Positions 1,118 through 62,972 of a stretch of DNA of 64,000 nt are shown one piece after another. Both the position numbers and the translations under genes were made by a program. Position 1 is the stretch's first letter; the number at the start of each line of letters is the position of its first letter. Source of the stretch: Chloroflexota bacterium (lineage in GTDB: Bacteria > Chloroflexota > Anaerolineae > Promineifilales > Promineifilaceae); the NCBI GenBank assembly GCA_013112725.1, contig JABFFZ010000004.1:24147-88146 (forward strand), written 5' to 3'. The notes under the pieces were generated by a model. The model was not told where the DNA came from and searched no databases. It saw nothing but the letters and a program-made list of their open reading frames with translations.

Positions 1118-1162
1118 GAATTATGAATTATGAATTATGAATTATGAAGGATGAATTATGAA
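1118..1162. repeat. Tandem heptamer array (GAATTAT x ~6, one GAAGGAT variant)
   Basis: Read directly: gaattat gaattat gaattat gaattat gaaggat gaattat gaaa. It lies between the ABC-F start and the MBL gene stop. The same unit recurs at 45997-46030 and, inverted, at 2061-2088. Confidence 0.9.
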
Positions 1163-1176
1163 AGGGTGGCGCCTTG

Positions 1177-1941
1177 TCACCCCTTCACCTGCTCACCCAA
1201 CTCCAGGCTGTTGCCCGGCGGCAGTACCTGCACCAGCACAGCGGGGGCCAGTTCGGCGGTGCGGTCGGCAAAGGTGATGGGGGGCAGGGTGAGGAAGACG
1301 GGGTTGAGCCAGCTGAAGCCGATGGGGTGGAAGGCGCCCCAATGGATGGGAATAGCGATTTTGGGCTGGATGAGGGCGCAGGCTTTGGCGGCCGTTTCCG
1401 GGTCCATGTGGCCGTCACCCAACGTTGGCCCCCAACCCCAAATGGGCAGCAGGGCGATGTCTGGGTGCAGCGCGGCCATTTCCGGGTAGAGGTCGGTATC
1501 GCCGGCGAAGTAGATGGAAGTGGCACGGCCGTACACCATAAAGCCCACACATGCTGTTCTGGCCCCCATGGGGGTGCGCTGGCTGATGTGGTCGGCAAAC
1601 ACCGCTTTGATGGTCAGGGGGCCAACGGCCGTTTGTTGGCCGACGCTGATCTCTTCGATTTGAGTAAAGCCGTACCTTTTGAGCATGTCGGCCGTGCCGA
1701 TTGGCCCAATGATGCGTGTGTCTCGCCCCAACCTTTTGAGTGAGGGGATGTCCAGGTGGTCGCGGTGGTGGTGGGAGAGCAGGATGGCGTCCAGGGGGGA
1801 CAGGTGGTTGAAGGGGGGGTACGGCCGTCGGCGGCGCAAATGGGCAATGCGATGGCGCAGCAGCGGGTCGGTCAGCAGCCGAACCCCATCCAGTTCAATC
1901 AACACCGTGGCATGGCCGAGGTAGGTAAGGCAGTCTATCAT
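1177..1941 (-). CDS. MBL-fold metallo-hydrolase
   Basis: 254-aa ORF with the HxHxDH zinc motif (LLSHHHRDHLD) and a typical beta-lactamase-fold N-terminus (YLGHATVLIELDGVRLLTDP). Confidence 0.85.
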   Translation of the reverse strand: MIDCLTYLGHATVLIELDGVRLLTDPLLRHRIAHLRRRRPYPPFNHLSPLDAILLSHHHRDHLDIPSLKRLGRDTRIIGPIGTADMLKRYGFTQIEEISVGQQTAVGPLTIKAVFADHISQRTPMGARTACVGFMVYGRATSIYFAGDTDLYPEMAALHPDIALLPIWGWGPTLGDGHMDPETAAKACALIQPKIAIPIHWGAFHPIGFSWLNPVFLTLPPITFADRTAELAPAVLVQVLPPGNSLELGEQVKG

Positions 1942-1959
1942 ATCGGGATTATACTGATG

Positions 1960-2013
1960 AACAGGTCAATGTCACCTGTTCACCCTTTCACCTGTTCACC
2001 CGATCACTTTTTC
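1960..2013. repeat. Short hairpin (AACAGGT..ACCTGTT) followed by a tandem TCACC-type 8-9-mer array
   Basis: aacaggtcaatgtcacctgttcaccctttcacctgttcacccgatcac. A related array (ttgtcaccccttcacctgctcaccc) sits at 1173-1199 on the other side of the MBL gene. Confidence 0.8.
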
Positions 2014-2060
2014 ACGGCCGTTACCCCCGTCCCCCACCATACGCTATAATCCCCGCCCAT

Positions 2061-2088
2061 TCCTAATTCATAATTCCTAATTCATAAT
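2061..2088. repeat. Tandem 14-mer x2 (TCCTAATTCATAAT), the reverse complement of the GAATTAT-type array
   Basis: tcctaattcataat tcctaattcataat, immediately upstream of the M16 peptidase start. Confidence 0.85.
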
Positions 2089-2095
2089 TTCTTCT

Positions 2096-3409
2096 ATGAC
2101 CACCAAAACCATCCTTCCTAACGGCCTCACTATTCTCCTTAAAGAAATGCACCATGCGCCCGTAATTTGTTTCATGGTCTGGTACCGCGTGGGCAGCCGC
2201 CACGAACGGCCGGGGCTGACCGGCGTTTCTCATTGGGTGGAGCATATGATGTTCAAGGGCACACCCACTTTTCCTGACGGTACGCTAGACAGGCTGGTCT
2301 CCCGCGAGGGTGGGCAGTGGAACGCTTTCACCTGGCTGGACTTCACCGCCTATTACGAAACGATGCCCGCCAATCGCATTGACCTGGCGCTGCGCCTGGA
2401 AGCGGACCGCATGGTGAACACCATCATGGACGCCGATGAGGTAGAATCGGAGCGGGCGGTGATTATTGCCGAGCGGCAGATGTATGAGAATGACCCGGAC
2501 TTTCTGCTGAATGAGGAACTCACGGCCGTCGCCTTCCGCGTCCACCCCTACCATCATGAAGTCATCGGCGACCTGGCCGATTTACAGACGATGACGCGGG
2601 ATGATTTGCTGGCCCATTACCGCCATTACTACGCGCCGCCCCAGGCGACACTGGTAGTGGTGGGGGATTTTGACACGGCCGTGATGCTCACCCGGCTGCA
2701 AGAACTGTATGGCGGCATCCCGGCGGGCGAAAACGGCGTACCTGTTGTCCGGCCAGAGCCGCCGCAAAATGGCGAACGGCGCGTGGTGGTGCATGGCCCT
2801 GGCGACACCGCCTATCTGACGGTGGCTTACCGCGCTCCGGCGGCCAGCCATCCCGACTTTTTCCCACTGGCGCTGCTGAATGCAGCCTGGGCCGGGGGCA
2901 GCAGCCTGGGCATGTTTGGCGGCAGCGGCAGCAATAAAAGCTCCCGGCTGTATAAGGCGTTGGTCAATACCGAACTGGCCGCTTCCGTTTCCGGCGGCCT
3001 GACACCGACCATTGACCCGTTTTTGTATACGATTCAGGCGGTGGTGCGGCACGGCCGTAGCCTGGACGAAGTGGAAGCGGCGCTGGACGCCGAACTGGCC
3101 CGCCTGCACACCGAACCCATCACCCAGGCGGAACTGGACAAGGCACTTAAACGGGCCAAAGCGGACTTTGTGCTGGCCGGGGAGAGCATCACCGGGCAGG
3201 CGCAGTTGTTGGGCATGGCCGAAGCCGTCGTCGGCGACTACCGCTGGTATGAGACGGTGTTGGATCAACTTCACGCTGTCACTCTGGCCGACATTGAGCG
3301 GGTGCGCGCCACGTATTTACGTAAAAGATACCGCGTTGTTGGCCGTTATGAACCGGATAGTGAGATGACCGGCGCTATGGCCGTGGATGAGGAGCAAACA
3401 AACGGATAA
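2096..3409 (+). CDS. M16 (pitrilysin/insulinase) family zinc peptidase, catalytic-type subunit
   Basis: 437 aa. The inverted zinc motif HxxEH is present (GVSHWVEHMMFKGT), and the protein has the two-domain M16 length. Confidence 0.9.
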   Translation: MTTKTILPNGLTILLKEMHHAPVICFMVWYRVGSRHERPGLTGVSHWVEHMMFKGTPTFPDGTLDRLVSREGGQWNAFTWLDFTAYYETMPANRIDLALRLEADRMVNTIMDADEVESERAVIIAERQMYENDPDFLLNEELTAVAFRVHPYHHEVIGDLADLQTMTRDDLLAHYRHYYAPPQATLVVVGDFDTAVMLTRLQELYGGIPAGENGVPVVRPEPPQNGERRVVVHGPGDTAYLTVAYRAPAASHPDFFPLALLNAAWAGGSSLGMFGGSGSNKSSRLYKALVNTELAASVSGGLTPTIDPFLYTIQAVVRHGRSLDEVEAALDAELARLHTEPITQAELDKALKRAKADFVLAGESITGQAQLLGMAEAVVGDYRWYETVLDQLHAVTLADIERVRATYLRKRYRVVGRYEPDSEMTGAMAVDEEQTNG

Positions 3410-3660
3410 GCGCCAGGCGAATAAATTCGCGGCTACACAAGGCGAAGACCGCCTGCGCGGTCTGGCAACAGTCAGCGAAGGGCGATTTTGCCCTCTGTAG
3501 CCGTGGTTCCAACAGTCGGGATCATATCCGATAAAAATTCGTCGGGGCGAAGGCTGTGCTACAATACCCCCATTGATCAAAAATGAGAGTAATGGTTGGT
3601 AACTGGCGTAGACAATCAGCCACCAACCACCAGCCACCATCAACTTTTCAGGAAAACACT

Positions 3661-4254
3661 ATGAGTACACCAACGGCCGTAGCCACCCCCACCAAACATC
3701 CACCTAAACTGTCGCCCAAACTCATTACCGGCGAAGAACTATACGCCATGGGCGACATTGGCCCATCTGAATTAGTCAAAGGGGAGATTAAATACCTCAT
3801 GCCCACCGGACACCCACACGGATATTTTGAAAGTCTCATTGCGTTTTTCTTGACCATGTTTGTGCGTGAACACAAACTGGGCCGGGTGCTTACCGGGGAG
3901 GTTGGCATCTATACCGGCCGTAAACCGGACACGGTACGCGCTGCTGACGTCATCTTCATTTCCGATGAACGTTTCCGCCAGGTACGTTCCGCTGGTTATC
4001 TGGATGTGGCCCCAGAGTTGGTAGTAGAGGTGATGTCGCCAGATAATACCTGGAGCGAAGTGCAGAAGAAACTGGCAGAGTATTTTGCTGTAAATGTATT
4101 GATGGTGTGGGTGGTTGACCCGCAGTTAGAGCAGGTGCATGTGTATCGTTCGCCGGAGCAAATGAAACTGCTGCGTAAAGAAGATAGGCTTACCGGTGAC
4201 GATGTACTGCCCGGTTTCCAGGTCGCTTTGGCCGAGATTTTTACGGCCGAGTAG
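3661..4254 (+). CDS. Uma2 family (DUF820) endonuclease
   Basis: The ORF track starts at 3583. ATG at 3661 (MSTPTAV) is the more likely start. The core LVVEVMSPDN..KLAEYFAVNVLMVWVVDP..VHVY is the PD-(D/E)xK-like Uma2 signature region. Confidence 0.8.
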   Translation: MSTPTAVATPTKHPPKLSPKLITGEELYAMGDIGPSELVKGEIKYLMPTGHPHGYFESLIAFFLTMFVREHKLGRVLTGEVGIYTGRKPDTVRAADVIFISDERFRQVRSAGYLDVAPELVVEVMSPDNTWSEVQKKLAEYFAVNVLMVWVVDPQLEQVHVYRSPEQMKLLRKEDRLTGDDVLPGFQVALAEIFTAE

Positions 4255-4268
4255 CCACTTTCATAACA

Positions 4269-6071
4269 TTGAAGCGATTGCCAGCCACCATCCTCCACGC
4301 CGTTCGCCGGTTGCCGGGCACATTTGATGATGAAGAACGCCGCCTGGTGGTGCAGTCGGTCATCATTGGTGTGGTTGTTTGGGCTATTGTTTATCCCCTG
4401 AAAATTGGCGTCCATTGGCTCTTTGACCTGACCTTGCATAGCCTGGAACAATTGGGGCACGGGCCGCAGCAGTTGTTGGTGTTGGCTCCGCTGCTGGTGG
4501 GGGCGCTTGTTGTGGCTGTCATTGCCCGCACCCATGCGGTGATGGTGCATTATCGAGACGATGACGGCGTCATCCACGAGCTAAATGATGTGGAAGGGGA
4601 TGGGTTGGAGCGAGCTATTGCCCTGTATTACAGCTCCGAACCGGCGTTTGAGCGGGTTTTGCAAGGGCAGGAAGGGCTGGATGTGCGTTGGCAGTTGCCT
4701 ACCTTCTCGCTAGCCTTCCGCAAGTTTGCAGCCACGCTGGTGACATTGGGCAGCGGCGGCAGCGGTGGCCTGGAAGCCAGCGTCACCCTCATTGGCGAAA
4801 GCAGTGCGGCCGGCCTGTTTAAGCCACGCCAACCTATTGCCAGGGTGAATGAAAAGATTGGCGTGGTTGGCCGTTTCTGGCGCTGGTGGCAGGCGGATGA
4901 CCCCGACGATTTGCAGACGGCGCAGCTGAGTGGCATTGCGGCGGCGGTGGCGGTGTTGTTAGGCGCGCCGCTGACGGCTGCCTTTTTTGCCATTGAAGTG
5001 ATGTATCGCCAGCGTCCACTCATCGAAAAGCTGGCATATACGCTGATTTCGGCGTTGGTAGCTTACTCGCTGACCGATCTGGTAACGGTGGGTCACCCGG
5101 TCATTTTTTCGGTAGAGCAGCACTTCGTGCCGCCGACGTCGCCGCGTTATTATGCGGTAGTGGTGTTGATGGCAACGGCCGTGTCCCTGGTCAGCATCTT
5201 CTTCAAACAATTCCGTGCATACACCGATCATCTTTTGCACCACCGTTTTACCGATTCGCGGCAGCGGCTATTGGTGGGGGCGACCATTACCGGCCTGATT
5301 GCCTTTACGGCAGCCATCATCACCTTTGAATTGGATTGGTGGGAAAATGGATTGGAACTGGTGTTAGGGCCAGGTGATAGCGTGATCAATGCAGCCCTGG
5401 CCGGAGAATTCACTCTGGCAGTAGCGCTAGTGGCATTGGCGGCTAAAATGCCTGCTACCCTGGCGACCATTGGTTCGGGTGGCTCGGCCGGATTGCTGGT
5501 GCCCTCTCTCTTTTTTGGGACGATGGTGGCCTCAGCGTTTGCTGTTCTTTTTGACTATGAACCAATGTTGTTGATTGTGCCCGGCATGACAGCCGCTCTG
5601 GTTTCCATCGTCAACGTGCCCCTGGCGGCCATCTTGTTCACCGTTGAATTGTTTGGTTCGGTATACATGCTACCGGCGCTGCTCACGCTGGTGATCACCT
5701 CCATTCTGGCTCACGACCGTACTATTTATCGCCCGCAGCGGGAAAAAGCAGCCAAACGCCAGATCATGCCCGGTGTGGGGTCGCGTCGCATTTTGCCGCC
5801 GCCCTCCTGGTGGGGCAAGACGCTGGTGGAACTGGATTTACGCCGCCGTTATAACGTGAATGTAGTCGGGCTGATGGAGTTTCAGGATGAGCATGGCAAC
5901 CCTCGTGTGCGGCTGGATACTTCTTCAACCGTACCGCTATCTGATGGTGATGTGCTGGTGGTCATCGGACGGGAAGAAAAGCTAGAAGCTCTGGAAACGG
6001 CCGTGCGCGCCGAACGTGCTACTGGCTGGCAAAATGCGGTGGATGATGCGCTGAAAACCGAGGAAACATGA
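4269..6071 (+). CDS. ClC-family voltage-gated chloride channel protein with C-terminal TrkA-C/RCK_C domain
   Basis: 600 aa with about 10 hydrophobic helices. ClC-like glycine-rich motifs are present (TLGSGGSGGLEAS; GSGGSAGLLVPSLFFG). The soluble C-terminus (NVNVVGLMEF...GDVLVVIGREEKLEALE) resembles TrkA-C. The start is TTG in the ORF track, so the exact start is uncertain. Confidence 0.75.
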   Translation: MKRLPATILHAVRRLPGTFDDEERRLVVQSVIIGVVVWAIVYPLKIGVHWLFDLTLHSLEQLGHGPQQLLVLAPLLVGALVVAVIARTHAVMVHYRDDDGVIHELNDVEGDGLERAIALYYSSEPAFERVLQGQEGLDVRWQLPTFSLAFRKFAATLVTLGSGGSGGLEASVTLIGESSAAGLFKPRQPIARVNEKIGVVGRFWRWWQADDPDDLQTAQLSGIAAAVAVLLGAPLTAAFFAIEVMYRQRPLIEKLAYTLISALVAYSLTDLVTVGHPVIFSVEQHFVPPTSPRYYAVVVLMATAVSLVSIFFKQFRAYTDHLLHHRFTDSRQRLLVGATITGLIAFTAAIITFELDWWENGLELVLGPGDSVINAALAGEFTLAVALVALAAKMPATLATIGSGGSAGLLVPSLFFGTMVASAFAVLFDYEPMLLIVPGMTAALVSIVNVPLAAILFTVELFGSVYMLPALLTLVITSILAHDRTIYRPQREKAAKRQIMPGVGSRRILPPPSWWGKTLVELDLRRRYNVNVVGLMEFQDEHGNPRVRLDTSSTVPLSDGDVLVVIGREEKLEALETAVRAERATGWQNAVDDALKTEET

Positions 6072-6751
6072 CCGATTTTAAAGAAATTTATGCCACTCAG
6101 GCGGAGCGGTATGAACGGCTGGTAATGCGGGAGGATGTGGATAGCAATCTCCTGAAGGCGTTGCAAACCATTCACCCGTTAGCGCAGGCAGATGTGGTGG
6201 AGTTTGGCGCGGGCACGGGGCGGCTGACCTGTCTGCTGGCCTCATTGGTCAAAAGCATCCATGCTTACGATGAATCGGCGGCGATGCTGGCGGTGGCGGA
6301 GCGTAAATTACAAGTAGGTGGCTGGCAAAATTGGCGCACGGCCGTCGCCGACCACCGCTCTATTCCCTTATCAGATCAATCTGCCGATATCGCTATTGAG
6401 GGATGGGCGTTTGGGCATTTTGTGGGCTGGCATCCGGCCAACTGGCGCGAAGAAGCGGGCCGGGCGCTGGCGGAAATGAAGCGGCTGCTCCGCCCCGGTG
6501 GGCTGATGATTTTGATAGAAACCTTGGGCACCGGTTTTGAAACGCCCACACCGCCGGAACAGCTACGGCCGTTTTACCACTGGCTGGAAACAGAACACCA
6601 CTTCCATCACACCTGGATACGCACTGACTACCACTTTGCCAGCCAGGAAGAAGCCACCGAACTCCTCGGTTTCTTCTTCGGCCCAGAAATGGCTACCGGC
6701 GCCCAAATCCGCTTCCCCGAATGTACCGGCCTCTGGTACAAAATCGTGTAG
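6068..6751 (+). CDS. Class I SAM-dependent methyltransferase
   Basis: Motif I VVEFGAGTGRLT and the post-I acidic residue (YDES). The start ATGA overlaps the ClC stop by 4 nt. Confidence 0.8.
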   Translation: MTDFKEIYATQAERYERLVMREDVDSNLLKALQTIHPLAQADVVEFGAGTGRLTCLLASLVKSIHAYDESAAMLAVAERKLQVGGWQNWRTAVADHRSIPLSDQSADIAIEGWAFGHFVGWHPANWREEAGRALAEMKRLLRPGGLMILIETLGTGFETPTPPEQLRPFYHWLETEHHFHHTWIRTDYHFASQEEATELLGFFFGPEMATGAQIRFPECTGLWYKIV

Positions 6752-6754
6752 ACT

Positions 6755-6814
6755 TGTACAATATATTGCACATAATCGGCTACCTGGCTATACTTTTGTC
6801 AGGCAGACCTGACA
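6755..6814 (+). promoter_or_regulatory. Candidate yefM-yoeB operator: two palindromes, TGTACAatatatTGCACA (6755-6772) and TGTCAGGcagaCCTGACA (6797-6814)
   Basis: Both inverted repeats were read directly, 45-105 nt upstream of the yefM ATG. The E. coli yefM-yoeB operator is known to consist of paired palindromes with TGTACA cores. Confidence 0.4.
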
Positions 6815-6859
6815 GATTTGAGAAAACCTATCAGGTCTATTAATCAGAATGAGGTTACC

Positions 6860-7114
6860 ATGCAAGTAGTCACCTTTACAGAAGCGAGAAATAATCTAAA
6901 AAGCATTTTGGACAGGGTGGTAACGGACGCCGATTACACGGTGATTACCCGACGTGATGCCGAGGACACGGTGGTTATGTCTCTGGAGTCGTTTAATAGT
7001 CTGCTGGAAACGGTCTACCTGCTCCGGTCACCGGCCAATGCCGCCCACCTGGCGCGTTCTATCGAACAGTTCCAAAATGGGCAGGTAACAGAAAGGGAAT
7101 TGCTGGATGAGTAG
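6860..7114 (+). CDS. yefM: Type II antitoxin, Phd/YefM family
   Basis: MQVVTFTEARNNLKSILDRVVTDADYTVITRRDAEDTVVMSLESFNSLLETVYLLRSPANAAHL is a canonical YefM sequence. A GAGG RBS precedes ATG 6860 (the ORF-track start at 6818 is probably an over-extension). The stop overlaps yoeB by 8 nt. Confidence 0.9.
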   Translation: MQVVTFTEARNNLKSILDRVVTDADYTVITRRDAEDTVVMSLESFNSLLETVYLLRSPANAAHLARSIEQFQNGQVTERELLDE

Positions 7115-7367
7115 AAAGCTGGCCTGGACAGAGGCAGCCTGGTCAGATTATCTCTATTGGCAGTCTCAAGACAAAAAAAACTTAAAGCGTATCAACCGCT
7201 TAATTGAGGAGACCCGGCGCGACCCTTTTGCCGGTATTGGCAAACCAGAACCTTTGCGCGAAAATTTGTCCGGCTTTTGGTCCCGCCGCATTGACGAGGC
7301 CAATCGCCTGGTCTACACGGTAGATGACGACTATCTCACCATTATCGCCTGCCGATACCACTACTAA
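7107..7367 (+). CDS. yoeB: Type II toxin, Txe/YoeB family mRNA interferase
   Basis: 86 aa. The sequence W..AWSDYLYWQSQDKKNLKRINRLIEETRRDPFAGIGKPEPLRENLSGFWSRRIDEANRLVY...IIACRYHY matches YoeB end to end. Confidence 0.9.
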   Translation: MSRKLAWTEAAWSDYLYWQSQDKKNLKRINRLIEETRRDPFAGIGKPEPLRENLSGFWSRRIDEANRLVYTVDDDYLTIIACRYHY

Positions 7368-7385
7368 GCCACCATGACACATAAG

Positions 7386-7423
7386 CACCTGACGCCTGAA
7401 CACCTGACACCTGAACACCTGAC
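7386..7423. repeat. Tandem 15-mer array (CACCTGAC[GA]CCTGAA x2.5)
   Basis: cacctgacgcctgaa cacctgacacctgaa cacctgac fills the whole yoeB-to-M16 spacer. Confidence 0.9.
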
Positions 7424-7426
7424 CCA

Positions 7427-8692
7427 ATGACCAACGGCCGTTACCCCAACTCCCAAACGATTACCCGCCATACCTTAGCCAATGGGTTGACTATCTTGGC
7501 CTATGAGAATTTTGCCTCGCCTTCGGTGGTAATGGAGGGATTGGTGCGGGTGGGGGCATTGGCCGAGAATCGGGAAACGGCGGGGCTGGCAAACTTCACG
7601 GCCGTGTCCCTCATGCGTGGCACCCAAAACCGAACGTTTGACCAGATTTATGAGGCGCTGGAATCGGCCGGGGCCGACCTTAGTTTTAGCGGCGCGTTTC
7701 ATACCAGCGGCTTTTCGGCGCAAGGGCTGGTGGAGGATTTTGGCCTGCTGCTGGATATGGCCGCGGACGTCTGGCGCACCCCCACTTTCCCGCCCGAAGA
7801 GATTGTAAAAGTACAGGGGCAGTTGCTCACCGGCCTGCACATGCGCACCAACGATACCGGGCGCATGGCCAACCTGGCTTTTCACGAACTGGTTTATGAG
7901 GGGCATCCCTACGGCCATTCTGCCAGCGGCTACCCGGAAACCGTCAGCCGGTTAACCCCGGCCGATCTGGCCGCTTTCCATGCCCAACATTATGGGCCGC
8001 AGGGGGCCATCATCGTCGTCGTGGGGGCAGTGAAGGCTGAAGAAGCGATTGCGCGCGTTACGGCCGTGTTGGGTGACTGGCGCAACGAACGGCAACAGGT
8101 AATCACGGGGATACCCGACATGCCTCGCCCAGACTTCCATCTGCGCATCCACGTCAACATGCCAGACAAACACCAGGCCGACATTCGCCTGGGACTGCCC
8201 GGTCCCCGCCGCGCCGCCCCCGACTACCTGGAAGCCAGCCTGATGAACACCATCCTGGGCGTATTTGGTATGATGGGGCGCATTGGCCTGCGCGTGCGCG
8301 AGGAAGAAGGGCTGGCCTATTACGCCTACAGCCAGTTGCAGGGCGGCCTGGGGCCATCCCCCTGGATTGCCGCCGCCGGTGTGGCCCCGGAAGCAGTGGA
8401 ACAGGCCATCGTCAGCATCCTGGAAGAAGTGGCCCGCATTCAAAACGAACCGGTCAGCGCCGAAGAACTGGCCGACAGCCAGGCATACCGCATTGGCTCT
8501 ATGCCCATGGCTTTAGAGACAAACAGCGGTCTGGCGGATATTATTGGCGACCTGGAATTGTATGAACTGGGGCTGGACTATCTGGCCGAATACCCGGCGC
8601 GCATTCAGGCCATTACCCTGGCTGACATTCAAGCCGCCGCCCAGAAATACCTGAGTACCGAGCAGTTGGGCACGGCTGTGGCCGGCCCGTAG
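7427..8692 (+). CDS. M16 family peptidase, non-catalytic-type subunit (no HxxEH)
   Basis: 421 aa with the M16 fold pattern (LANGLTILAYENFASPSVVMEG...). The position equivalent to HxxEH reads NFTAVSLMRGT. This is the typical partner of the upstream catalytic subunit. Confidence 0.85.
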   Translation: MTNGRYPNSQTITRHTLANGLTILAYENFASPSVVMEGLVRVGALAENRETAGLANFTAVSLMRGTQNRTFDQIYEALESAGADLSFSGAFHTSGFSAQGLVEDFGLLLDMAADVWRTPTFPPEEIVKVQGQLLTGLHMRTNDTGRMANLAFHELVYEGHPYGHSASGYPETVSRLTPADLAAFHAQHYGPQGAIIVVVGAVKAEEAIARVTAVLGDWRNERQQVITGIPDMPRPDFHLRIHVNMPDKHQADIRLGLPGPRRAAPDYLEASLMNTILGVFGMMGRIGLRVREEEGLAYYAYSQLQGGLGPSPWIAAAGVAPEAVEQAIVSILEEVARIQNEPVSAEELADSQAYRIGSMPMALETNSGLADIIGDLELYELGLDYLAEYPARIQAITLADIQAAAQKYLSTEQLGTAVAGP

Positions 8693-8696
8693 AAGA

Positions 8697-8760: not shown

Positions 8761-8763
8761 AAG

Positions 8764-55809: not shown

Positions 55810-55843
55810 AAAATCTGTTACCTCGTTCTCTGATATGTGTGGG

Positions 55844-55915: not shown

Positions 55916-56969
55916 CCAAATTTTCTGCCGTTTCTGAGGTGATAGGTTCTGGGCTGTCTTCTATATAGTATTCGTAAACAAACCCGCTCATCAAATTGGC
56001 TATATAACGGACGGCGGCGACGTTACGGCCGTAAGGCATTCGTGTGGGGCCAATGACCGCCACCGTGCCGCTGAAAGCATCGGCGACGCCGTAGCGGGAG
56101 AGGATGATGGAGCAGTCTTTCAACTCTTCCCAACGCCCCTCGCCGCCTATGACTACCTGCACGCCCGGCTCTTCCGTTTGTGTTTCGGAGAGCATCGAAG
56201 CCAGTAAGGTGCGTTCTTCTAAAAAGCGAACCGCTTGCCGGGTGCGGGCATCTTCAACAATGTTAATCAGTCCATCCCGGTAAATATCGCTAATGGGGCG
56301 GCTGTCGGTACGCTCTAGAATTTCCAGGATCAGAACGGTGATGTCGTGTTCTAGTGAGTCCAGATGGCTCATTCGGCTGCGCACGTCTTCATAGGTGGCA
56401 TTTGTCAGAAGCGTGTTCAGGCGGTCAGCCGTGGCGCTCAACTGTGCCTGCGTGAGCGGTTCGGCTAACGTCAGCATTTGCTGTTTCACTTCGCCGCCAT
56501 ATAAAACCACGATCATGAGTACCAACCGGCCTTGGGTGGAAATGAGCTGGATGTGTTTGAAGCGGTTGATAGACGGCCGTGGCGCGGTGACAAAGCTGGC
56601 GCCCAATGATGTCCGTGCCAGAATGGCTGCTGCCAGCCGCATCCACTGGTCCAGGTCTAGCCGCGCTTGATGAAACTGGTGGCGGATCATTTGTTGTTCA
56701 TCTACCGGCAGATGAAAATCCCCTAACAGCTTTTGCACAAAGTAGCGGAAACCTTGCTCGGTGGGTACACGCCCGGCGGAGGTGTGCCACTGCATGAGGT
56801 AGCCCAATTCTGTCAGGGCCGCAAAATCATTGCGCACGGTGGCAGAACTGACGTTTAGATCAAATTGCTCAACCAAAGTTTTAGAACCGGTGGGTAAGCC
56901 GGTTTCGATGTAGTGGCGAACTACCAGTTCTAATAACTTTTCCTGTCGTTCTGTCAGGTCGTATACCAT
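55899..56969 (-). CDS. hrcA: Heat-inducible transcription repressor HrcA
   Basis: LTERQEKLLELVVRHYIETGLPTGSKTLVEQFDLNVSSATVRNDFAALTELGYL...HTSAGRVPT is the canonical HrcA winged-helix N-terminus. It is the first gene of the hrcA-grpE-dnaK-dnaJ row. Confidence 0.9.
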   Translation of the reverse strand: MVYDLTERQEKLLELVVRHYIETGLPTGSKTLVEQFDLNVSSATVRNDFAALTELGYLMQWHTSAGRVPTEQGFRYFVQKLLGDFHLPVDEQQMIRHQFHQARLDLDQWMRLAAAILARTSLGASFVTAPRPSINRFKHIQLISTQGRLVLMIVVLYGGEVKQQMLTLAEPLTQAQLSATADRLNTLLTNATYEDVRSRMSHLDSLEHDITVLILEILERTDSRPISDIYRDGLINIVEDARTRQAVRFLEERTLLASMLSETQTEEPGVQVVIGGEGRWEELKDCSIILSRYGVADAFSGTVAVIGPTRMPYGRNVAAVRYIANLMSGFVYEYYIEDSPEPITSETAENLAEIRD

Positions 56970-56977
56970 GGGTTTTT

Positions 56978-57012
56978 CAAAAGTTCAGCTTTTCTGAAAA
57001 GTTGAACTTTTG
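56978..57012. repeat. 16-bp hairpin in the hrcA leader (CAAAAGTTCAGCTTTT ctg AAAAGTTGAACTTTTG), same family as 46079-46113
   Basis: Read directly. It lies between CIRCE and the hrcA start codon. Confidence 0.8.
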
Positions 57013-57020
57013 TCATGAAA

Positions 57021-57047
57021 TTAGCACTCGTGATATGCGAGTGCTAA
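57021..57047 (-). promoter_or_regulatory. CIRCE operator (HrcA binding site)
   Basis: TTAGCACTC-gtgatatgc-GAGTGCTAA is a perfect match to the consensus TTAGCACTC-N9-GAGTGCTAA, 52 nt upstream of the hrcA ATG. Confidence 0.92.
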
Positions 57048-57062
57048 TGCGGCCTATCCGTT

Positions 57063-57091
57063 ATCATAACATGGCAAAAATTGAGCGTCAA
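57063..57091 (-). promoter_or_regulatory. Sigma-70-type promoter of the hrcA operon
   Basis: On the minus strand: TTGACG (57091-57086), a 17-nt spacer, then TATGAT (57068-57063). CIRCE starts 15 nt downstream of the -10 element. Confidence 0.55.
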
Positions 57092-57150
57092 ATAAGAACA
57101 GTGTAAGATGGAAGAATGATGCGTGAGCGTCAACCCCTGACGCCTCGCGC

Positions 57151-58662
57151 CTATTTGGGTTTGGTGATCGGAGCGGGCACGGCCGTTGCCGGTTCTTTTT
57201 CGCCATTGGGGGAAAGGAGGGTTTCCGACGGCCGTACCGGGGTAGCATACTGATGGGTGTTTTTTCTCTCCAAAATTTGCCATACGGTGCGTAGCAGGAT
57301 TTTGATGTCTAGCAAAATTGACCAGTTGGCCGAATACCACAGATCATATTTGGTGCGTTCTTCAATGGACGTATCGCCGCGTAACCCATTGACCTGCGCC
57401 CAACCGGTCATACCCCCCTTTTCTTGATGACGTTCCATATAGCGCGGCACGGTGCGCCGGAAATGTTCCACATAGTGTGCCTGCTCCGGGCGCGGCCCTA
57501 CCAGGCTCATTTCTCCCATAAATACATTGATCAATTGCGGTAGTTCATCCACATCCACCTGGCGCAAAAAGCGACCCAGACGGGTTTGCCGGGGATCATT
57601 GTTCAGCGTCCAGCCAGGCCCATGTTTTTCCGCGTCGGAGCGCATGGAGCGGAACTTCAACATGCGAAACGGTTTGCCATCCAACCCCATGCGCTCCTGT
57701 ACAAAGAAGACAGGCCCAGGTGATTCCAGTTTTATGGCGATGGCGATCAGCAGCATGAGCGGGGAAAAAAAGATAAGTCCGACGGTGGCGCCTATCAAAT
57801 CCATCATGCGTTTGAAAATGAGCATGTAGCCGCGCAGGGCATAGTCACGCACGGACAGCAGTGGCAACCCTCCCAGGGCGTCAATGCTGGCCTCTGAGGT
57901 CATAAACTGGAAGACATCGGGGAAAATTTTGACCGAAATACGCCCCCGTTCACAATAAGAGAGGACGTGAACGGTTTCCCGGTGCCCCTTTTCCGGCATG
58001 GCAATGATCACCTCATTGATGTCGTACTGATCAATCAATGCAGGTAAATCTTCAGGGCGACCTAACACGGGGATGCCCTGGATTTTGGTGAGCGGTTCGG
58101 AACCGTTGACTACCCCGACCAGTTCATACCCCAGGTAGGGCGACCATTGGATACGCTGAATAATGATTTGGGCCATTTCGCCAGAGCCGACAATGAGCAG
58201 CCGGTCTCGTCCCAGGCCATGCTCGCGTAGTTTGTTGCGCACCATCTGGTGCGCCAGACGGCCGATTAGGAGCAGAACGATGGCCAGGAACCAGGTATAC
58301 ACGATCATCGCGCGGGGATAATCGCTGATGATTACGTTGCCCTTGAAAATGAAGGTGGAGATGGCTACGGCAATAAGGGTGCCAATGGTCACGGCCGTGA
58401 CCGTTGAATACACCTGATCTATCCTGGAAATGGCGCGGGGAATGTAGTATTGCTTGTACAGGAATAAGGCAATGACAACGGCGCTTACTTCGAGCAGCAG
58501 CAGCCCGGCATAACTGGGAAGAGGATAGACATGCGTCAGCGTATCTGGCCAGGCATAAGAAACGCGCAGCTGATAAGCTAACACAAAAGCGGCTGTGACC
58601 ATCAATATGTCCAGCAAAAAAAGTGATATGGAGTAGATGTTTCTGAGTTTTTGTGTGGTCAT
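57151..58662 (-). CDS. Polyprenyl-phosphate glycosyl-1-phosphate transferase (exopolysaccharide initiating sugar transferase, WbaP-like)
   Basis: N-terminal TM helices and a central Rossmann-like domain. The C-terminal bacterial sugar transferase domain carries PGPVFFVQERMGLDGKPFRMLKFRSM and DELPQLINVFMGEMSLVGPRP. Confidence 0.85.
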   Translation of the reverse strand: MTTQKLRNIYSISLFLLDILMVTAAFVLAYQLRVSYAWPDTLTHVYPLPSYAGLLLLEVSAVVIALFLYKQYYIPRAISRIDQVYSTVTAVTIGTLIAVAISTFIFKGNVIISDYPRAMIVYTWFLAIVLLLIGRLAHQMVRNKLREHGLGRDRLLIVGSGEMAQIIIQRIQWSPYLGYELVGVVNGSEPLTKIQGIPVLGRPEDLPALIDQYDINEVIIAMPEKGHRETVHVLSYCERGRISVKIFPDVFQFMTSEASIDALGGLPLLSVRDYALRGYMLIFKRMMDLIGATVGLIFFSPLMLLIAIAIKLESPGPVFFVQERMGLDGKPFRMLKFRSMRSDAEKHGPGWTLNNDPRQTRLGRFLRQVDVDELPQLINVFMGEMSLVGPRPEQAHYVEHFRRTVPRYMERHQEKGGMTGWAQVNGLRGDTSIEERTKYDLWYSANWSILLDIKILLRTVWQILERKNTHQYATPVRPSETLLSPNGEKEPATAVPAPITKPK

Positions 58663-58869
58663 TGCCTTCTTTTACATGCCAGTTTCCATTGACGATTTTA
58701 ACAAACCCCTCATCAGGTTCAAAAAAAGATGTTCGCTGCTTTCACGCCTTTTAGCCACTTCTTACCCTACGTCAACCACAAACTCATTAACTGGCATATA
58801 ATCAGGCCCGTGAATCATCCTATTTATTCCTATTTATTTATTAGGAAAATCAAGAATAAAAGGCAGTAC

Positions 58870-60087
58870 ATGAACGAATCACGCAGGCGCATTTTTTTTA
58901 CAGTTTTTATTTTTACCTGTTTGGGTTTTATGGCGGGGTACGTGTTGGCGCAATCACCCATAGCGCCTTATCGTATGGCCGGGCCGCCACTTTCTGGTGA
59001 AGCGCAGGTTGTTTTTGAGCCGTTCTGGGAAGTGTGGGAACTGGTGCAAACCCGCTATTATGAACAGCCGGTAGACAACCAGGCCCTGGTGGAAGGAGCT
59101 ATTGTGGGTATGCTGGCGGCTTTGGAAGATGATCACACTCGTTATTTGTCGCCGGCCGATCAGGAGGCGGCGGAACGCACTTTTTCCGGCGAGTATCAGG
59201 GTATTGGGGCAGAGGTAGAGGCGCGTGACGGCCGTATCACCATTGTCTCGCCCATTGATGGTTCTCCAGCCCAGGCGGCCGGTTTGCGGCCCGGCGATAT
59301 TATTGTAGCGGCTGATGGCGTCATTTTGGATGGGATGGATGTGAGTGAGGCCGCGTCATTGGTGCGGGGGCCGGCGGGCACGGCCGTATTGCTGCAAATT
59401 GAGCGTGATGGCGAAACATTTGACATTGAAATCGTCCGCGACACAGTAAAACTGGTCAGCGCCACCGGGCGCATGTTGCCGGAAAACATCGCCTATGTGC
59501 GCCTGAGCCGTTTTGGTGATACGACCGGCGACGAATTGAATGCGCTTTTACCTGGTCTGATAACCCAAAACCCCGCCGGCCTGATTCTGGATTTGCGGCG
59601 CAATCCAGGTGGGGCGCTGGATACCACCGTTAAAATTGCCGACGAATTTTTGGCTGAGGGTACGGTATTGGTGGAGCGGTTTGGCGACGGCCGTGAACGT
59701 GTCTTTTCCGCAAAAGATGGCAATCTGGCGGAAACAATTCCCCTGGTAGTGTTGATTGATGAAGGCAGCGCCAGCGCCTCAGAAGTATTGGCCGGGGCTA
59801 TTCAGGATACCGGGCGTGGTATCCTCATTGGCCAGACCTCCTTTGGTAAAGGCACGGTGCAAACCTGGCACACCCTGTCTAACAAGGGCGGCGTGCGCAT
59901 CACCATTGCCCAATGGCTCACCCCTGGCGAAACATCCATTCACAAACTGGGCTTAACCCCTGACTACTTTATTCCGATGCCGGAAGATGCCATCCTGACT
60001 GATGATGGCGACACGCAGTTGCAAGCGGCCATTGATTTCCTCACCGGCCAAACGATTATCAGCATTCCCCCGGACAATGGGGGGTAG
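58870..60087 (+). CDS. S41 family C-terminal processing peptidase with PDZ domain
   Basis: ATG 58870 (MNESRRRIFFTVFIF signal/anchor). PDZ domain (GLRPGDIIVAADGV). The catalytic Ser is in GSASASEVLAGA and the catalytic Lys in TSFGKGTVQ. Confidence 0.85.
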   Translation: MNESRRRIFFTVFIFTCLGFMAGYVLAQSPIAPYRMAGPPLSGEAQVVFEPFWEVWELVQTRYYEQPVDNQALVEGAIVGMLAALEDDHTRYLSPADQEAAERTFSGEYQGIGAEVEARDGRITIVSPIDGSPAQAAGLRPGDIIVAADGVILDGMDVSEAASLVRGPAGTAVLLQIERDGETFDIEIVRDTVKLVSATGRMLPENIAYVRLSRFGDTTGDELNALLPGLITQNPAGLILDLRRNPGGALDTTVKIADEFLAEGTVLVERFGDGRERVFSAKDGNLAETIPLVVLIDEGSASASEVLAGAIQDTGRGILIGQTSFGKGTVQTWHTLSNKGGVRITIAQWLTPGETSIHKLGLTPDYFIPMPEDAILTDDGDTQLQAAIDFLTGQTIISIPPDNGG

Positions 60088-60307
60088 GGGCCGGTAATCG
60101 GTAAACGGAAAAGGGTTGGCCCGGATGAGATTGCGCTCATCCGGGCTTTTTTTATCCAGTAATTCTCATTTTGCCCGGCGGCGGCAGATAAATATGCATC
60201 TACGGAGAGCAGAGCCTGCCCTGAACCTGTTGAAGGGTGGGCTCTGCTCTCCGTAGGTGCGGTTTTAATCGCTGGCTCTTGGTAAATTGAGAATTGCTGT
60301 TTTTATC

Positions 60308-61105
60308 ATGGCGAATTCGTCCCCTGATGACAATTCGGATATAGTTCCAGATTGTGGCTTGGAACTTATGGAACCGACTGAATACCAAACCATGTATCAG
60401 GTGGAAGACCACCACTGGTGGTACGTGGGAATGCAGCGAATCACTACCACCCAGATTACCGTTCTTTTTCCGGGCCGGAGTGATTTGTCTATTCTGGACG
60501 CCGGTTGTGGCACGGGGGCGGTGATGAAGTACCTGGCGCCGTTTGGTAATGTAACCGGTTTTGATTTGATGCCCCACGCTCTGAACTTTTGCCAGGAACG
60601 GGGGCTGGCACGGCTGGTGCAGGCCAGCGTCACCCGTGTGCCCTTTGCCCCTGACCATTTTGATTTGGCGACATCCTTTGACGTGTTATGCCATCGTTCC
60701 ATTGGTGATTACCGGGAGGCGTTGCGCGAGTTTAACCGGGTGCTAAAACCGGGTGGCTATCTGTTTTTGCGCCTGCCCGCTTACAACTGGCTACGGGGGC
60801 ATCATGACCAGGTAGTACACACGGTGCATCGTTTTAGCCGGGCAGAAATTAAGGCAGCACTGGTTGAGACAGGGTTCACGGCCGTGAAACTCTCCTATGC
60901 CAATATGCTGCTCTTCCCCCTGGCGCTGGGCAAACGCATGGCCGAACGGTTCGTCCCCGAAAATGACGGCGCCTCCGACGTGCGCCCCAATCCCCCCTGG
61001 CAAGACAATCTCTTTGCCCGCTTTCTATATGCGGAAGCCGGTTGGCTGCGACATAGCGCGCTCCCCTTTGGCTTAACCCTCATGGCAATTGGAAGAAAAG
61101 TATGA
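60308..61105 (+). CDS. Class I SAM-dependent methyltransferase
   Basis: Motif I ILDAGCGTGAV and motif II-like LKPGGYLFL. A 4-nt overlap links it to the downstream GT2 gene. The start is ATG 60308 or the ORF-track TTG at 60287. Confidence 0.75.
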   Translation: MANSSPDDNSDIVPDCGLELMEPTEYQTMYQVEDHHWWYVGMQRITTTQITVLFPGRSDLSILDAGCGTGAVMKYLAPFGNVTGFDLMPHALNFCQERGLARLVQASVTRVPFAPDHFDLATSFDVLCHRSIGDYREALREFNRVLKPGGYLFLRLPAYNWLRGHHDQVVHTVHRFSRAEIKAALVETGFTAVKLSYANMLLFPLALGKRMAERFVPENDGASDVRPNPPWQDNLFARFLYAEAGWLRHSALPFGLTLMAIGRKV

Positions 61106-61875
61106 GTAACACCAGACCGGGCATTACCGCCTTTTTTCCGGCTTACAACGATGCCGGCACCATTCCCAGTATGGTTATCACGGTGCTGCTAACCCTGCGG
61201 GAACTGACCGATGATTACGAAGTAGTGGTCATCAACGATGGCAGTAAAGACCACACGGCGCAAGTGTTGGATGAACTGGCCCGCATTTACCCGGATGAGG
61301 TGCGCATTGTGCATCATGTGAAAAACCGGGGGTATGGCGGGGCGCTGCGTTCCGGTTTTGCCAATGCTACCAAAGAGTGGATTTTTTACACGGACGGCGA
61401 TGCCCAATATGATCCTCGTGAACTGAAATTGCTGGCAAACCTGGTCAGCGATGAGGTGGATTTGATCAACGGCTGGAAGATTGAGCGAAATGATCCGCTG
61501 CACCGCATTATCATTGGTCGTATTTACCAGCATATGGTGAAGGCGGCCTTTGGGCTAAAGCTGAAAGATGTGGACTGTGATTTCCGGCTCATGCGCCGGG
61601 CTATTTTTGATAAGGTAGAACTGACTCAAGACAGCGGCGTGATTTGCGTGGAGATGATGAAAAAGATTCAAGACGCCGGGTTCCGGCTGACGGAAACGCC
61701 GGTACATCATTTTCACCGGGCGTATGGCAAGAGCCAGTTCTTTAACTATCGCCGTTTGGCGCGGGTAGCCCGCGACCTGGCAAAACTGTGGCTGTGGCTG
61801 GTCTGGCGCAAGGAGCATTTGCAGAACACGGCCGTGCCCGTCAGTGAGCAGTTGCCAGCAAGCAGTAAGCAGTAA
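61102..61875 (+). CDS. Family 2 glycosyltransferase (polyprenyl-phosphate sugar synthase-like)
   Basis: ITAFFPAYNDAGTI, NDGSKD and YTDGDAQYD (DxD) are typical of DPM1/ArnC-like GT2 enzymes. Confidence 0.85.
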   Translation: MSNTRPGITAFFPAYNDAGTIPSMVITVLLTLRELTDDYEVVVINDGSKDHTAQVLDELARIYPDEVRIVHHVKNRGYGGALRSGFANATKEWIFYTDGDAQYDPRELKLLANLVSDEVDLINGWKIERNDPLHRIIIGRIYQHMVKAAFGLKLKDVDCDFRLMRRAIFDKVELTQDSGVICVEMMKKIQDAGFRLTETPVHHFHRAYGKSQFFNYRRLARVARDLAKLWLWLVWRKEHLQNTAVPVSEQLPASSKQ

Positions 61876-61921
61876 ACCGCTCACCGCTCACCGTTCACTG
61901 CTTACCGCTCACCGCTCACTG
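61858..61921. repeat. Heptamer arrays (AGCAGTA x2, then ACCGCTC/ACTGCTT x6)
   Basis: agcagtaagcagtaa accgctcaccgctcaccgttcactgcttaccgctcaccgctcactg. The first part encodes SSKQ and the stop of the GT2 gene, sharing the AGTAAGCAGTAA ending with the fructokinase gene. Confidence 0.9.
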
Positions 61922-61923
61922 AA

Positions 61924-62928
61924 ATGCCCACCATCACCCCCCCCCTCGAACAATTTGCCGGGAAACACGTGCTGATCACCGGTGGATTGGGCTTTATCGG
62001 CTCTAACCTGGCGCGGCGGTTGGTGGAATTGGGCGCAGATGTGCTGCTGCTCGATTCACTCGTCCCTGAATATGGCGGCAACCTGTTCAACATCGCCACC
62101 ATTCAAGACCGGGTGCGGGTCAATATCGCCGACATGCGCGACGAATACGGGCTGCGCTATTTGGTGCAGGGGCAGGATTACATCTTCAATTTGGCCGGGC
62201 AGGTGAGCCATACAGATAGTATGGATAACCCGTATACCGACCTGGAAATCAATGCCCGCAGCCAGCTTTCGCTACTGGAAGCGTGCCGGCATGGCAACCC
62301 CCACGTACAGGTTATTTTTGCCAGCACGCGCCAGTTTTACGGCCGTGCCCAATACCTGCCCGTAGACGAGCGCCACCCCATCCAGCCCGTAGACGTTAAC
62401 GGCATCAACAAACTGGCCGGTGAGTGGTACCACATCGTCTATCACCAGGCGTATGGTCTGAAAACCACCTCCCTCCGCCTGACCAACACCTATGGCCCCC
62501 ACATGCGCATCAAGGACGCCCGCCAGACCTTCCTCGGCTGGTGGTTGCGCCTGCTGGTAGAGGGCAAACCACTGACGATTTACGGCGATGGTTTACAGGT
62601 GCGTGACTTCAATTTCGTGGAAGACGTCACAGACGCTTTGCTCCTGGTTGCCCTCAGCGAGGCCGCTATTGGGCAAATTTACAACCTGGGCAGCGACGAC
62701 CCCATCAACCTGCTCAACCTGGCGCGGCTGATGATTGAGATTAACGGGGCGGGCAACTACGAACTGCTGCCCTTCCCCCAAGAGCGGAAGCGTATTGACA
62801 TTGGTGACTTTTACGGTGATTACCGCAAAATTCGGAGCAAACTTGGCTGGCGTCCTAAAACCAGCCTGCGCGACGGACTCACCCGCACCATCACCTTTTA
62901 CCGGGAGCATTTGCACCACTATTTGTAA
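61924..62928 (+). CDS. NAD-dependent sugar-nucleotide epimerase/dehydratase (SDR family)
   Basis: Rossmann motif VLITGGLGFIGSNLARRL and extended-SDR length (334 aa). Substrate specificity cannot be judged by eye. Confidence 0.85.
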   Translation: MPTITPPLEQFAGKHVLITGGLGFIGSNLARRLVELGADVLLLDSLVPEYGGNLFNIATIQDRVRVNIADMRDEYGLRYLVQGQDYIFNLAGQVSHTDSMDNPYTDLEINARSQLSLLEACRHGNPHVQVIFASTRQFYGRAQYLPVDERHPIQPVDVNGINKLAGEWYHIVYHQAYGLKTTSLRLTNTYGPHMRIKDARQTFLGWWLRLLVEGKPLTIYGDGLQVRDFNFVEDVTDALLLVALSEAAIGQIYNLGSDDPINLLNLARLMIEINGAGNYELLPFPQERKRIDIGDFYGDYRKIRSKLGWRPKTSLRDGLTRTITFYREHLHHYL

Positions 62929-62972
62929 TTTTGTAAGTGGGCATTGGCCCAGTTGCCCCATTACCCAATTAC
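62925..62972. repeat. Degenerate GTAATT/CCAATTAC-type repeat hairpin
   Basis: gtaattttgtaagtgggcattggcccagttgccccattacccaattacc. The epimerase stop TAA lies within the first unit. Confidence 0.7.

Follow-up and report, generated by a model that had tools for sequence, protein, structure and literature searches.

Dense 7- and 8-nt tandem arrays, often paired as convergent inverted arms, in intergenic spacers of an Ardenticatenaceae-like Chloroflexota clade

Heptameric tandem repeats have been known from cyanobacteria since 1990 and from Xanthomonas since 2015, and neither their origin nor their function is understood. The short tandemly repeated repetitive (STRR) sequences of heterocystous cyanobacteria, reportedly described by Mazel and co-workers in 1990 as tandem heptanucleotides in non-coding DNA, are said to comprise STRR1 (CCCCAGT), STRR2 (TTGGTCA) and STRR3 (CAACAGT). 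Here we analyze the 7–8-nt tandem arrays found in intergenic spacers of a 64-kb stretch of Chloroflexota DNA (the window) and compare them with these and other repeat systems. Heptamers recorded in Calothrix, Nostoc and Anabaena include GGGGAYT, TTTTGAA and GACYAAT (PMC4692102; bioRxiv 10.1101/2022.06.06.494920), and the function of cyanobacterial and Beggiatoaceae heptamers has only been speculated upon (PMC4679880). Heptamers dominate the long simple-sequence repeats (SSRs) of many bacterial genomes (Mrazek et al. 2007, as cited in PMC4679880), with polymerase slippage proposed as the cause (PMC4679880, PMC4692102). Xanthomonas carries 183–186 GGGAATC arrays, ~90% of them intergenic, and in 70–75 cases two arrays are convergent (PMC4692102); paired arrays are "always" convergent and most arrays are transcribed (Rehm et al. 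2015, PMC4692102), while array type is preserved and length variable between species (PMC4692102).

The window arrays are a known kind of element, namely 7-/8-mer long SSRs that often form convergent inverted pairs; what is new is the Chloroflexota host and the unusual density. We hold with moderate confidence that they are STRR- and Xanthomonas-like repeats built in place, at the DNA level, in the short spacers of an Ardenticatenaceae-like clade. Tandem Repeats Finder (TRF) reported 55 rows in the window, and merging the rows of period 7, 8 and doubled period (14–16) gave 26 arrays. At a cut-off of period 7–8 and at least 2.8 copies, 23 rows remained, compared with 0–1 in 20 dinucleotide-preserving shuffles. 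On a corrected gene map, 600 of 819 array bases (73%) are intergenic, though intergenic DNA makes up 5.4% of the window, and every array of period 3, 6, 9 or 12 is coding. Both marks of long SSRs are present: head-to-tail units of 5–11 nt above chance, and intergenic placement of non-triplet units. A rare coding heptamer array, (ACCGATC)x4.4 at 42206–42236, lies inside the alpha-amylase-family gene 42048–43652 (−), ~50 codons from the gene end.

The first-pass annotation of this DNA had described nearly every spacer as built from such repeats, usually as a forward array followed by its reverse complement. The arrays proved real and far above shuffles, but they occupy only 15 of the 36 spacers of at least 25 nt (~40%) and make up ~17% of the intergenic DNA; ordinary (non-array) hairpins sit in many of the other spacers. 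An inverted partner accompanies ~10–12 of ~20 arrays, the remainder (1118, 2059, 7386, 45999 and 1972) being single-armed, and about half of the arrays are octamers. Array-bearing spacers comprise 6 of 13 between two minus-strand genes, 6 of 12 between two plus-strand genes, 2 of 6 divergent and 1 of 5 convergent spacers, so that the co-directional, convergent and divergent contexts described earlier are all found. Unit families are few, joined by single-base steps, and found again at non-orthologous loci, which upholds the earlier picture of few families recurring far apart. Direct reading of the sequence also located every unit listed there: GTAATTGG/CCAATTAC at 9121, 9940, 37865, 43658 and 62925; GAATTAT at 1118, 2059 and 45999; GGAGATT/TCTAATC at 53208 and 55842; AGCAGTA/ACTGCTT/ACCGCTC at 35537 and 61856; CACCTGA at 7386, GCAGGTG at 26059 and CGTAATCCG at 8697; and TCACC-type units at 1159 and 1972.

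Judged by sequence similarity, the window is Chloroflexota and Ardenticatenaceae-like. The closest relatives of one of its proteins are uncultured Chloroflexota/Ardenticatenaceae metagenome-assembled genomes (MAGs), many from anammox reactors (90–93% amino-acid identity to MAGs, 73% to one Ardenticatenaceae bin), and syntenic DNA is 72–91% identical to that of relatives. The non-cyanobacterial lineage suspected earlier is borne out by these nearest genomes, and the cyanobacterial highly iterated palindrome HIP1 has a count of 0. Gene content is ordinary housekeeping, including a hrcA-grpE-dnaK-dnaJ-prmA operon and a sugar ABC operon. For comparison we used seven close relatives (L001–L007, with the window the window clade) and ten more distant Chloroflexota and other loci (L008–L017). 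The close relatives have arrays at the same spacers, so the arrays extend beyond the window. Array density is 2.1–6.7 per 10 kb in L001–L007 versus mostly <1 in L008–L017, and that of the octamer ACGGCCGT is 14–20 per 10 kb versus ~0 in distant loci; both are clade-specific among the loci compared.

Among described systems, the closest precedent is the heptameric long SSRs, especially the GGGAATC inverted pairs of Xanthomonas, not the cyanobacterial STRR sequences. The earlier likening to STRR holds as description (intergenic 7-/8-mers, few recurring families), but the Xanthomonas pairs are closer. There, too, tandem heptamers (~90% intergenic) lie close to the neighboring open reading frame (ORF) and frequently form convergent, stem-loop-capable pairs of the same G-rich-then-C-rich polarity, and from species to species position and single or paired type stay the same, length and sequence being variable. 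Pairs in the Xanthomonas sense, with the same unit on opposite strands and convergent, are represented by the 10–12 two-armed window arrays and by a clade polarity of 17:0. Xanthomonas differs in its one dominant GGG-tract unit with G-quadruplex potential, whereas the many 7-/8-mer families here contain GG at most; no G-quadruplex-type GGG-tract unit was found among GGTAATTG, GGAGATT, CAGTAAG and similar families of the window and L001–L007. Its 186 arrays per ~5 Mb compare with ~4 per 10 kb here, a density ~ten times higher, in another host phylum and with unit-family replacement seen at orthologous sites.

Cyanobacterial STRR sequences share with the window arrays the presence of several heptamer families per genome, intergenic and often near start codons or promoters, and of a highly iterated palindromic octamer in the same genome. 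The arrays here are likewise tandem heptanucleotides in non-coding DNA, but the host is Chloroflexota, and the STRR1–3 units have no match among the unit families of the window or L001–L007. The octamer is GCGATCGC there and ACGGCCGT here, and inverted pairing, rare in Anabaena, is common here. Single-arm CATAATT and CACCTGA arrays resemble the TAACTGA repeats of Beggiatoaceae (MacGregor 2015, PMC4679880), which are intergenic, stop-containing heptamers concentrated directly upstream of start codons; those differ in that there is just one unit, hardly ever inverted (one indirect repeat among 169 sets), and in a suggested connection with an alternate beta' subunit of RNA polymerase (PMC4679880). 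Two-armed arrays recall repetitive extragenic palindromes (REPs) and bacterial interspersed mosaic elements (BIMEs), intergenic imperfect palindromes found mostly downstream of coding regions and within operons (Di Nocera et al. 2013, PMC3733652); both are plausibly transcribed, and REPs also occur in Chloroflexi (PMC3733652). REPs differ in being dispersed unit-length copies with a GTAG/CGTC tag and, for the GTAG class, a REP-associated tyrosine transposase (RAYT) (PMC3733652), whereas the arrays here are untagged, consist of tandem sub-units, and have arms and loops that differ at each locus. No array hairpin carries a GTAG/CGTC tag; GTAG...CTAC feet occur only on separate non-array hairpins (15330–15372, 46030–46075). 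Literature searches on STRR with Chloroflexi or on array strings returned nothing relevant, and no paper on such arrays in Chloroflexota.

Orthologous spacers were then compared among relatives. Arrays would arise in place by slipped-strand duplication in 7–8-nt registers, the seed often being sequence near a stop codon. At ~85% DNA identity, orthologous spacers still bear arrays with the unit family changed; position and single or paired type are kept, and length and sequence vary. At spacer 9935–10013 the window and L001 share GGTAATTG/CAATTAC units, where L002–L004 and L006 have GGAGATT/AATCTCC, and spacer 8693 holds CGTAATCC, GTGAGCA or CGGTAAT units, depending on the relative. The orthologue of spacer 9127–9181 is a composite of GGTGAnnn, then AATCTCC, then leftover CCAATTAC in L002 and L003, and has the GGTGAnnn and AATCTCC array types without CCAATTAC in L004 and L005; to judge from their sequence, the composite arrays of L002–L005 are intermediates of unit turnover. 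A 118-nt hairpin array at spacer 10860 is present in L002–L004 and absent from the window. Units track the local stop codon, GGGTAA going with GGGTAATT units and GGGATGA with GGTGA units (GGTGAnnn), and in three relatives the M16 peptidase ORF runs into the array up to an array-borne TAA.

Copy number is stable among strains. The first-pass annotation had proposed comparing orthologous spacers for unit-number variation: one orthologous hairpin differs between L002 and L004 by exactly one 7-nt unit, and near-identical strains are equal. Across 9+9 independent contigs, drawn from many sequencing runs, copy number is equal for the arrays flanking gene 9182–9934 and grpE; between two MAGs (L022 and L023, 98.7–98.8% gene identity) these arrays differ by just 1–2 substitutions. 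Four arrays were tested for unit-number polymorphism among near-identical strains, and none was polymorphic. Hypervariability of a phase-variable contingency SSR was rejected on this fixed copy number. The grpE-bearing short-read contigs (L031–L038, Logan) all start within the (GAGATTA)n array upstream of grpE (window 55842–55913), and in public metagenomes assemblies of this organism break at the arrays.

A possible but doubtful alternative is that the hairpins are selected RNA structures, REP-/BIME-like intercistronic or 3' stem-loops for mRNA stability or termination, with tandem units easing stem evolution. The hairpins begin within ~15 nt of the upstream stop codon or include it, and they occupy classic positions, such as the spacer between substrate-binding protein (SBP) and permease genes and those of hrcA/grpE/dnaK/dnaJ. 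They are also kept at orthologous spacers in 6–7 relatives while the unit sequence is replaced, and stems can be strong (−41 kcal/mol at 9940). Pairing statistics speak against RNA-level selection. In 32 hairpin arrays from the window and L001–L007, scored without bias between pair types, the arms are ~90% complementary, with 563 Watson–Crick pairs, 20 G:T, 23 A:C and 20 other mismatches. A G:T excess (52:20) turned out to be a product of G:T-favoring scoring, and the claim of RNA selection was dropped. Folding energies of sense and antisense strands revealed no consistent sense-strand advantage, and a perfect 26-bp palindrome in L002 (15276–15339) mirrors an odd AGCGATT unit in both arms. Because G:T does not exceed A:C, the sense strand has no energy advantage and the odd unit is mirrored, the arms appear to be kept matched as DNA; selection on wobble-tolerant RNA pairing finds no support. 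Further points against RNA selection are the absence of U-tracts, the several G-rich/C-rich pairs that are wholly non-complementary (including L101 and L065), and the nearly half of arrays that are single-armed. In the DNA-level reading that we prefer, intrastrand template switching or inverted copying, rather than selection on RNA base pairs, would create the second arm and keep it matching.

Being found in every gene-orientation context and having no U-tracts, the arrays are not canonical (Rho-independent) terminators, which agrees with the earlier view that they are not simply terminators. A scan for hairpins followed by a T-run in two 20-kb regions (1–20000 and 42001–62000) had no array among its sites; a canonical terminator lies at 60118–60153. 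Rfam 15 gave 0 matches in the window at the gathering threshold. Hairpin arrays are found inside operons, at all three hrcA/grpE/dnaK/dnaJ junctions and in the sugar ABC operon. Two-armed arrays would therefore be transcribed, and most likely they would act as REP-like intercistronic stem-loops instead of canonical terminators.

The same paired architecture, including pairs built from other units, is visible in the metagenome contigs analyzed. A scan for GGTAATTGGGTAATTG matched at least 120 stretches, of which 80 were analyzed; 49 held at least 3 copies and 27 had a CAATTACC partner array, always downstream (36:0). These 80 stretches range from 33 to 71% GC, and about eight only are enriched in ACGGCCGT. 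Taxonomic hints are weak: the RpoB of L103 has proteobacterial-type PDB chains as its closest, a weak guide because there is no Chloroflexota RNA polymerase structure for comparison, and the TolC-family protein of L106 falls below the curated cutoff. In L103 (406–506 and 603–639) and L106 (7194–7294), GGTAATTG hairpin arrays have long loops enclosing a small hairpin (GAAAAGCGCTAGGCGC...), and in L103 the entire arm-plus-loop unit is duplicated ~200 nt apart. The idea that GGTAATTG is a special unit was rejected: in viral contigs its dimer is only 2–13x commoner than two composition-matched control dimers (78, 35 and 6 stretches), so the number of metagenome matches is no evidence for it. Few of the viral GGTAATTG matches are true arrays.

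Paired arrays follow a strict polarity, which is the most intriguing loose end. Adjacent pairs run G-rich then C-rich in 58 cases, C-rich then G-rich in 0, and are neutral in 26. The count is 17:0 in the window clade, 9:0 in ACGGCCGT-rich metagenome contigs and 32:0 in other metagenome contigs; by symmetry it holds on either strand, and it is kept even by non-complementary pairs. Among generic hairpins whose stems reach 11 bp or more, the counts of a G-rich versus a C-rich 5' arm are 8:0 in the window, 25:2 in L001–L007 and 10:3 in L008–L017. Viral contigs show 34:47, and polarity as a universal property of hairpins was rejected on that account. The entering arm, which an incoming ribosome meets first, contains 561 stop trinucleotides versus 147 in the leaving arm, the one before whatever follows; for start trinucleotides (ATG/GTG/TTG) the counts are 467 versus 98. 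Selection acting through translation would permit no period divisible by three, and it may help to set the G-then-C orientation. Such a filter accounts for the direction of the polarity; we do not think that it accounts for the lack of exceptions.

A very unlikely explanation is that the polarity reflects a conserved molecular process, such as an activity that extends free 3' ends with G-rich 7–8-nt repeats, working 5'-to-3' while breaks or forks are repaired. Convergent G-rich arrays would automatically remain as scars of telomerase-like or reiterative synthesis at the two ends of a break, or of fold-back priming. The 58:0 polarity across the clade and unrelated metagenome contigs, with 36:0 for GGTAATTG with a partner among the matches listed, fits this process, as do its survival in non-complementary pairs and across contigs of 33–71% GC, the "always" convergent pairs of Xanthomonas (PMC4692102) and the missing bias in generic viral-contig hairpins. 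Weighing against repair scars, no candidate enzyme has come to light, units follow the local stop codon rather than a fixed template, one genome holds many unit families, and a translational filter fits the polarity too. If the explanation were true, one undiscovered, telomerase-like repair pathway of bacteria would have left such arrays as its scars in Chloroflexota, cyanobacteria, Xanthomonas and others.

It is very improbable that the arrays are miniature mobile elements, akin to MITEs (miniature inverted-repeat transposable elements) or REP-derived REPINs, spread by a transposase such as RAYT. The same families do occur at distant loci and in other genomes, a whole hairpin in L002–L004 is missing from the window at spacer 10860, L103 has two near-identical copies including the loop, and GTAG-footed REP-like hairpins coexist in the window. 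Yet each locus of a window family has its own loops and arm lengths, copy number and unit mixtures vary continuously, the GTAG tag, terminal inverted repeats and target duplications are all absent, and a Pfam scan of ~40 window ORFs turned up no transposase. The mobile-element reading was rejected for want of shared loops, tags or duplications. The dedicated propagation mechanism entertained by the first-pass annotation finds no support on similar grounds: loops differ between copies, with no terminal repeats or duplications and no transposase nearby. Phase variation at contingency loci, or an artefact of assembly, is a scarcely credible account of the arrays, for although tandem repeats lie next to start codons and promoters and short-read contigs break inside them, copy number is equal across independent assemblies, many runs and two MAGs ~1.2% divergent, imperfect units damp slippage, and different assemblers and studies yield the same arrays.

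Taken together, these facts favor birth and upkeep in place, as DNA, with slow turnover, and they count against the arrays being mobile elements, contingency loci, canonical terminators or stems under strong RNA selection. Several points nonetheless weigh against in-place construction as we propose it. Local seeding leaves unexplained why the same few families recur at unrelated loci and why GGTAATTG arrays turn up in contigs of very different GC. Hairpins that persist at orthologous spacers despite full unit turnover are also what selection for structure would produce. A translational filter should leak, yet the polarity is 58:0 and generic hairpins of viral contigs show none, so a mechanistic cause is conceivable. 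The stem-loop and promoter roles are read from geometry, and the clade sample is ~180 kb, less than a whole genome.

In single-arm arrays of the CATAATT family the unit is always found on the sense strand, shortly before a start codon. Any pure (TTCATAA)n array includes TTCATA-N17-CATAAT, a −35/−10-like geometry that is built in, since 23 modulo 7 equals 2, and a promoter scan flags these arrays. At three independent loci, comprising five cases, the last CATAAT lies 6–8 nt before the ATG: window 1118 with its orthologue in L003, window 2059 with its orthologue in L002, and L007. At two more loci it lies 18–22 nt before the start, with a Shine–Dalgarno sequence in between. As far as sequence can tell, this geometry is that of leaderless or short-leader promoters, and the (TTCATAA)n family probably acts as a promoter. 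A TATAAT box 6 nt upstream of the ATG of gene 1177–1941 (1942–1953, −) and CATAAT boxes 7–8 nt upstream of ATGs 2096 and 1120 were also noted, with 2043–2049 (+) listed among these boxes; leaderless mRNAs may be common in the organism. The CACCTGA(A) array before ATG 7427 gives an almost unstructured, G-poor leader, its sense RNA folding at −3.4 kcal/mol versus −20.4 kcal/mol for the antisense. Array loci of the window are listed in Table 1.

Table 1 Repeat arrays of the window
Coordinates	Strand	Type	Units	Context
1118–1162	−	single-arm	sense strand (CATAATT)x6.4, i.e. (GAATTAT)x6.4 on +	separates MBL-fold gene 1177–1941 from next gene (start 1120); last CATAAT 8 nt before ATG
1159–1198		short hairpin	TGAAAGGGTGGCG / TGTCACCCCTTCA, running on into TCACC-type 8-mers (GGTGA on sense strand)	overlaps stop codon of gene 1177–1941
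1972–2015		8-mer array	TCACCTGT/TCACCCNN x4.5	spacer of divergent genes
2059–2089	+	single-arm	(ATTCMTA)x4.4	last CATAAT 7 nt before ATG 2096, leaderless-promoter-like geometry
7370–7423	+	single-arm, G-poor	CACCTGA(A) x5	stops 3 nt short of ATG 7427 (M16 peptidase)
8697–8760		hairpin array	CGTAATCCG then CGGATTACG/GGTCACG units	M16/ACPS spacer
9121–9162		hairpin array	(GGGTAATT)x3 then (AATTACCC)x2.8	ACPS stop codon TAA within first unit
9940–10004		hairpin array	(GGTAATTG)x3.9 then (CAATTACY)x4.8	stem ~28–30 bp; energy given in the text includes flanks
26059–26118		7-mer array, partial inverted partner	GCAAGTA/GCAGGTG, partner TCACCTGC...	between divergent HemN-like and histidine-kinase genes; gene starts uncertain
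35537–35588		hairpin array	CAGTAAGCAGTAA then (TACTGCT)x5	convergent genes; CAGTAAGCAGTAA includes ROK gene stop codon
37865–37921		hairpin array	GGTAATTG-type then CCCACTTA/CCCAATTAC units	first unit holds upstream gene's stop codon
43658–43708		hairpin array	(GTAATTGR)x3.9 then (AATTACTC)x2	perfect 16-bp stem; between ABC permease and amylase-family genes, both on −
45999–46030	−	single-arm	sense strand CATAATT/CATCCTT x4.3	SBP/permease spacer, 18 nt upstream of permease ATG with GGAGGAG Shine–Dalgarno in between; preceded there by two ordinary hairpins (46030–46075, 46080–46112)
53208–53254		hairpin array	GGAGAGTGGGAGATTGGAGATTG then CTCTAATTTCCCACTCTC	dnaK/dnaJ spacer
55173–55229		hairpin array	ATATTGRG 8-mers and complement	grpE/dnaK spacer; identical in 9 independent contigs
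55842–55913		asymmetric hairpin array	+ strand GGGGATTAGAGATGGG then (TAATCTC)x7 (from 55865); sense (−) strand (GAGATTA)x7	hrcA/grpE spacer; overlaps hrcA stop codon
61856–61919		partly pairing arms	AGCAGTAAGCAGTAA (contains stop codon) then (ACCGCTC/ACTGCTT)x6.3; (ACCGCTC)x6.3 from 61876	ends 4 nt before ATG 61924
62925–62972		weak hairpin	GTAATTTTGTAAGTGGGCA then TGCCCCATTACCCAATTAC	stop codon inside first unit

The clade is a very dense case of such repeats, with ~4 arrays per 10 kb. Because it combines many unit families with sequenced relatives at graded divergence, the birth of arrays, the matching of arms, unit turnover and polarity can be traced spacer by spacer, and the problem becomes more testable through the 58:0 polarity, the absent wobble asymmetry and the promoter geometry inherent in (TTCATAA)n. 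The arrays also have practical consequences: they fragment short-read assemblies of these Chloroflexota, which are abundant in wastewater and anammox reactors, and they mislead ORF callers at gene ends, where start and stop codons fall within arrays.

The octamer ACGGCCGT occurs 106 times in the 64 kb (for example at 2013–2020) against 1.4 expected from a zero-order model; 104 of the 106 copies lie inside ORFs, in all three frames (49/40/15), and its core is CGGCCG/GGCC. It is a HIP1-like iterated palindrome of different sequence. HIP1 itself (GCGATCGC), with 0 copies, was rejected as the window's octamer, and the "HIP-like octamer" mentioned earlier is ACGGCCGT. The first-pass annotation had taken arrays and octamer together as cyanobacterium-like repeat biology; the two are separable, as many contigs with GGTAATTG hairpin arrays lack ACGGCCGT enrichment. 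A literature search on ACGGCCGT found no relevant paper.

Other features of the window lie apart from the arrays. A perfect CIRCE operator (TTAGCACTC-N9-GAGTGCTAA) at 57021–57047 stands upstream of the hrcA-grpE-dnaK-dnaJ-prmA cluster 51063–56969 (−). A low-GC island at 16435–22818 (GC 0.45–0.49, and GC at third codon positions (GC3) 0.40–0.45 versus ~0.65 elsewhere) carries genes for an M23 peptidase/Golvesin-domain protein and for three PD40/beta-propeller proteins; it was probably acquired horizontally, and both of its spacers are without 7–8-nt arrays. The Uma2-family endonuclease gene (3583–4254) is found at its position only in the window and L001, and the PhdYeFM/YoeB toxin–antitoxin pair (6818–7367) has a conserved ACTTGTACAATATATTGCACA element upstream; both are strain-level accessory content amid syntenic DNA. 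The GTAG...CTAC-footed, REP-like palindromes noted above, together with long G-run hairpins sharing a GGCTTTAGCC core (24846–24902, 41956–42003) and a hairpin pair sharing AAGTTSAACTT (46080–46112, 56978–57012), none of them arrays, suggest a second, REP-like repeat population alongside the arrays.

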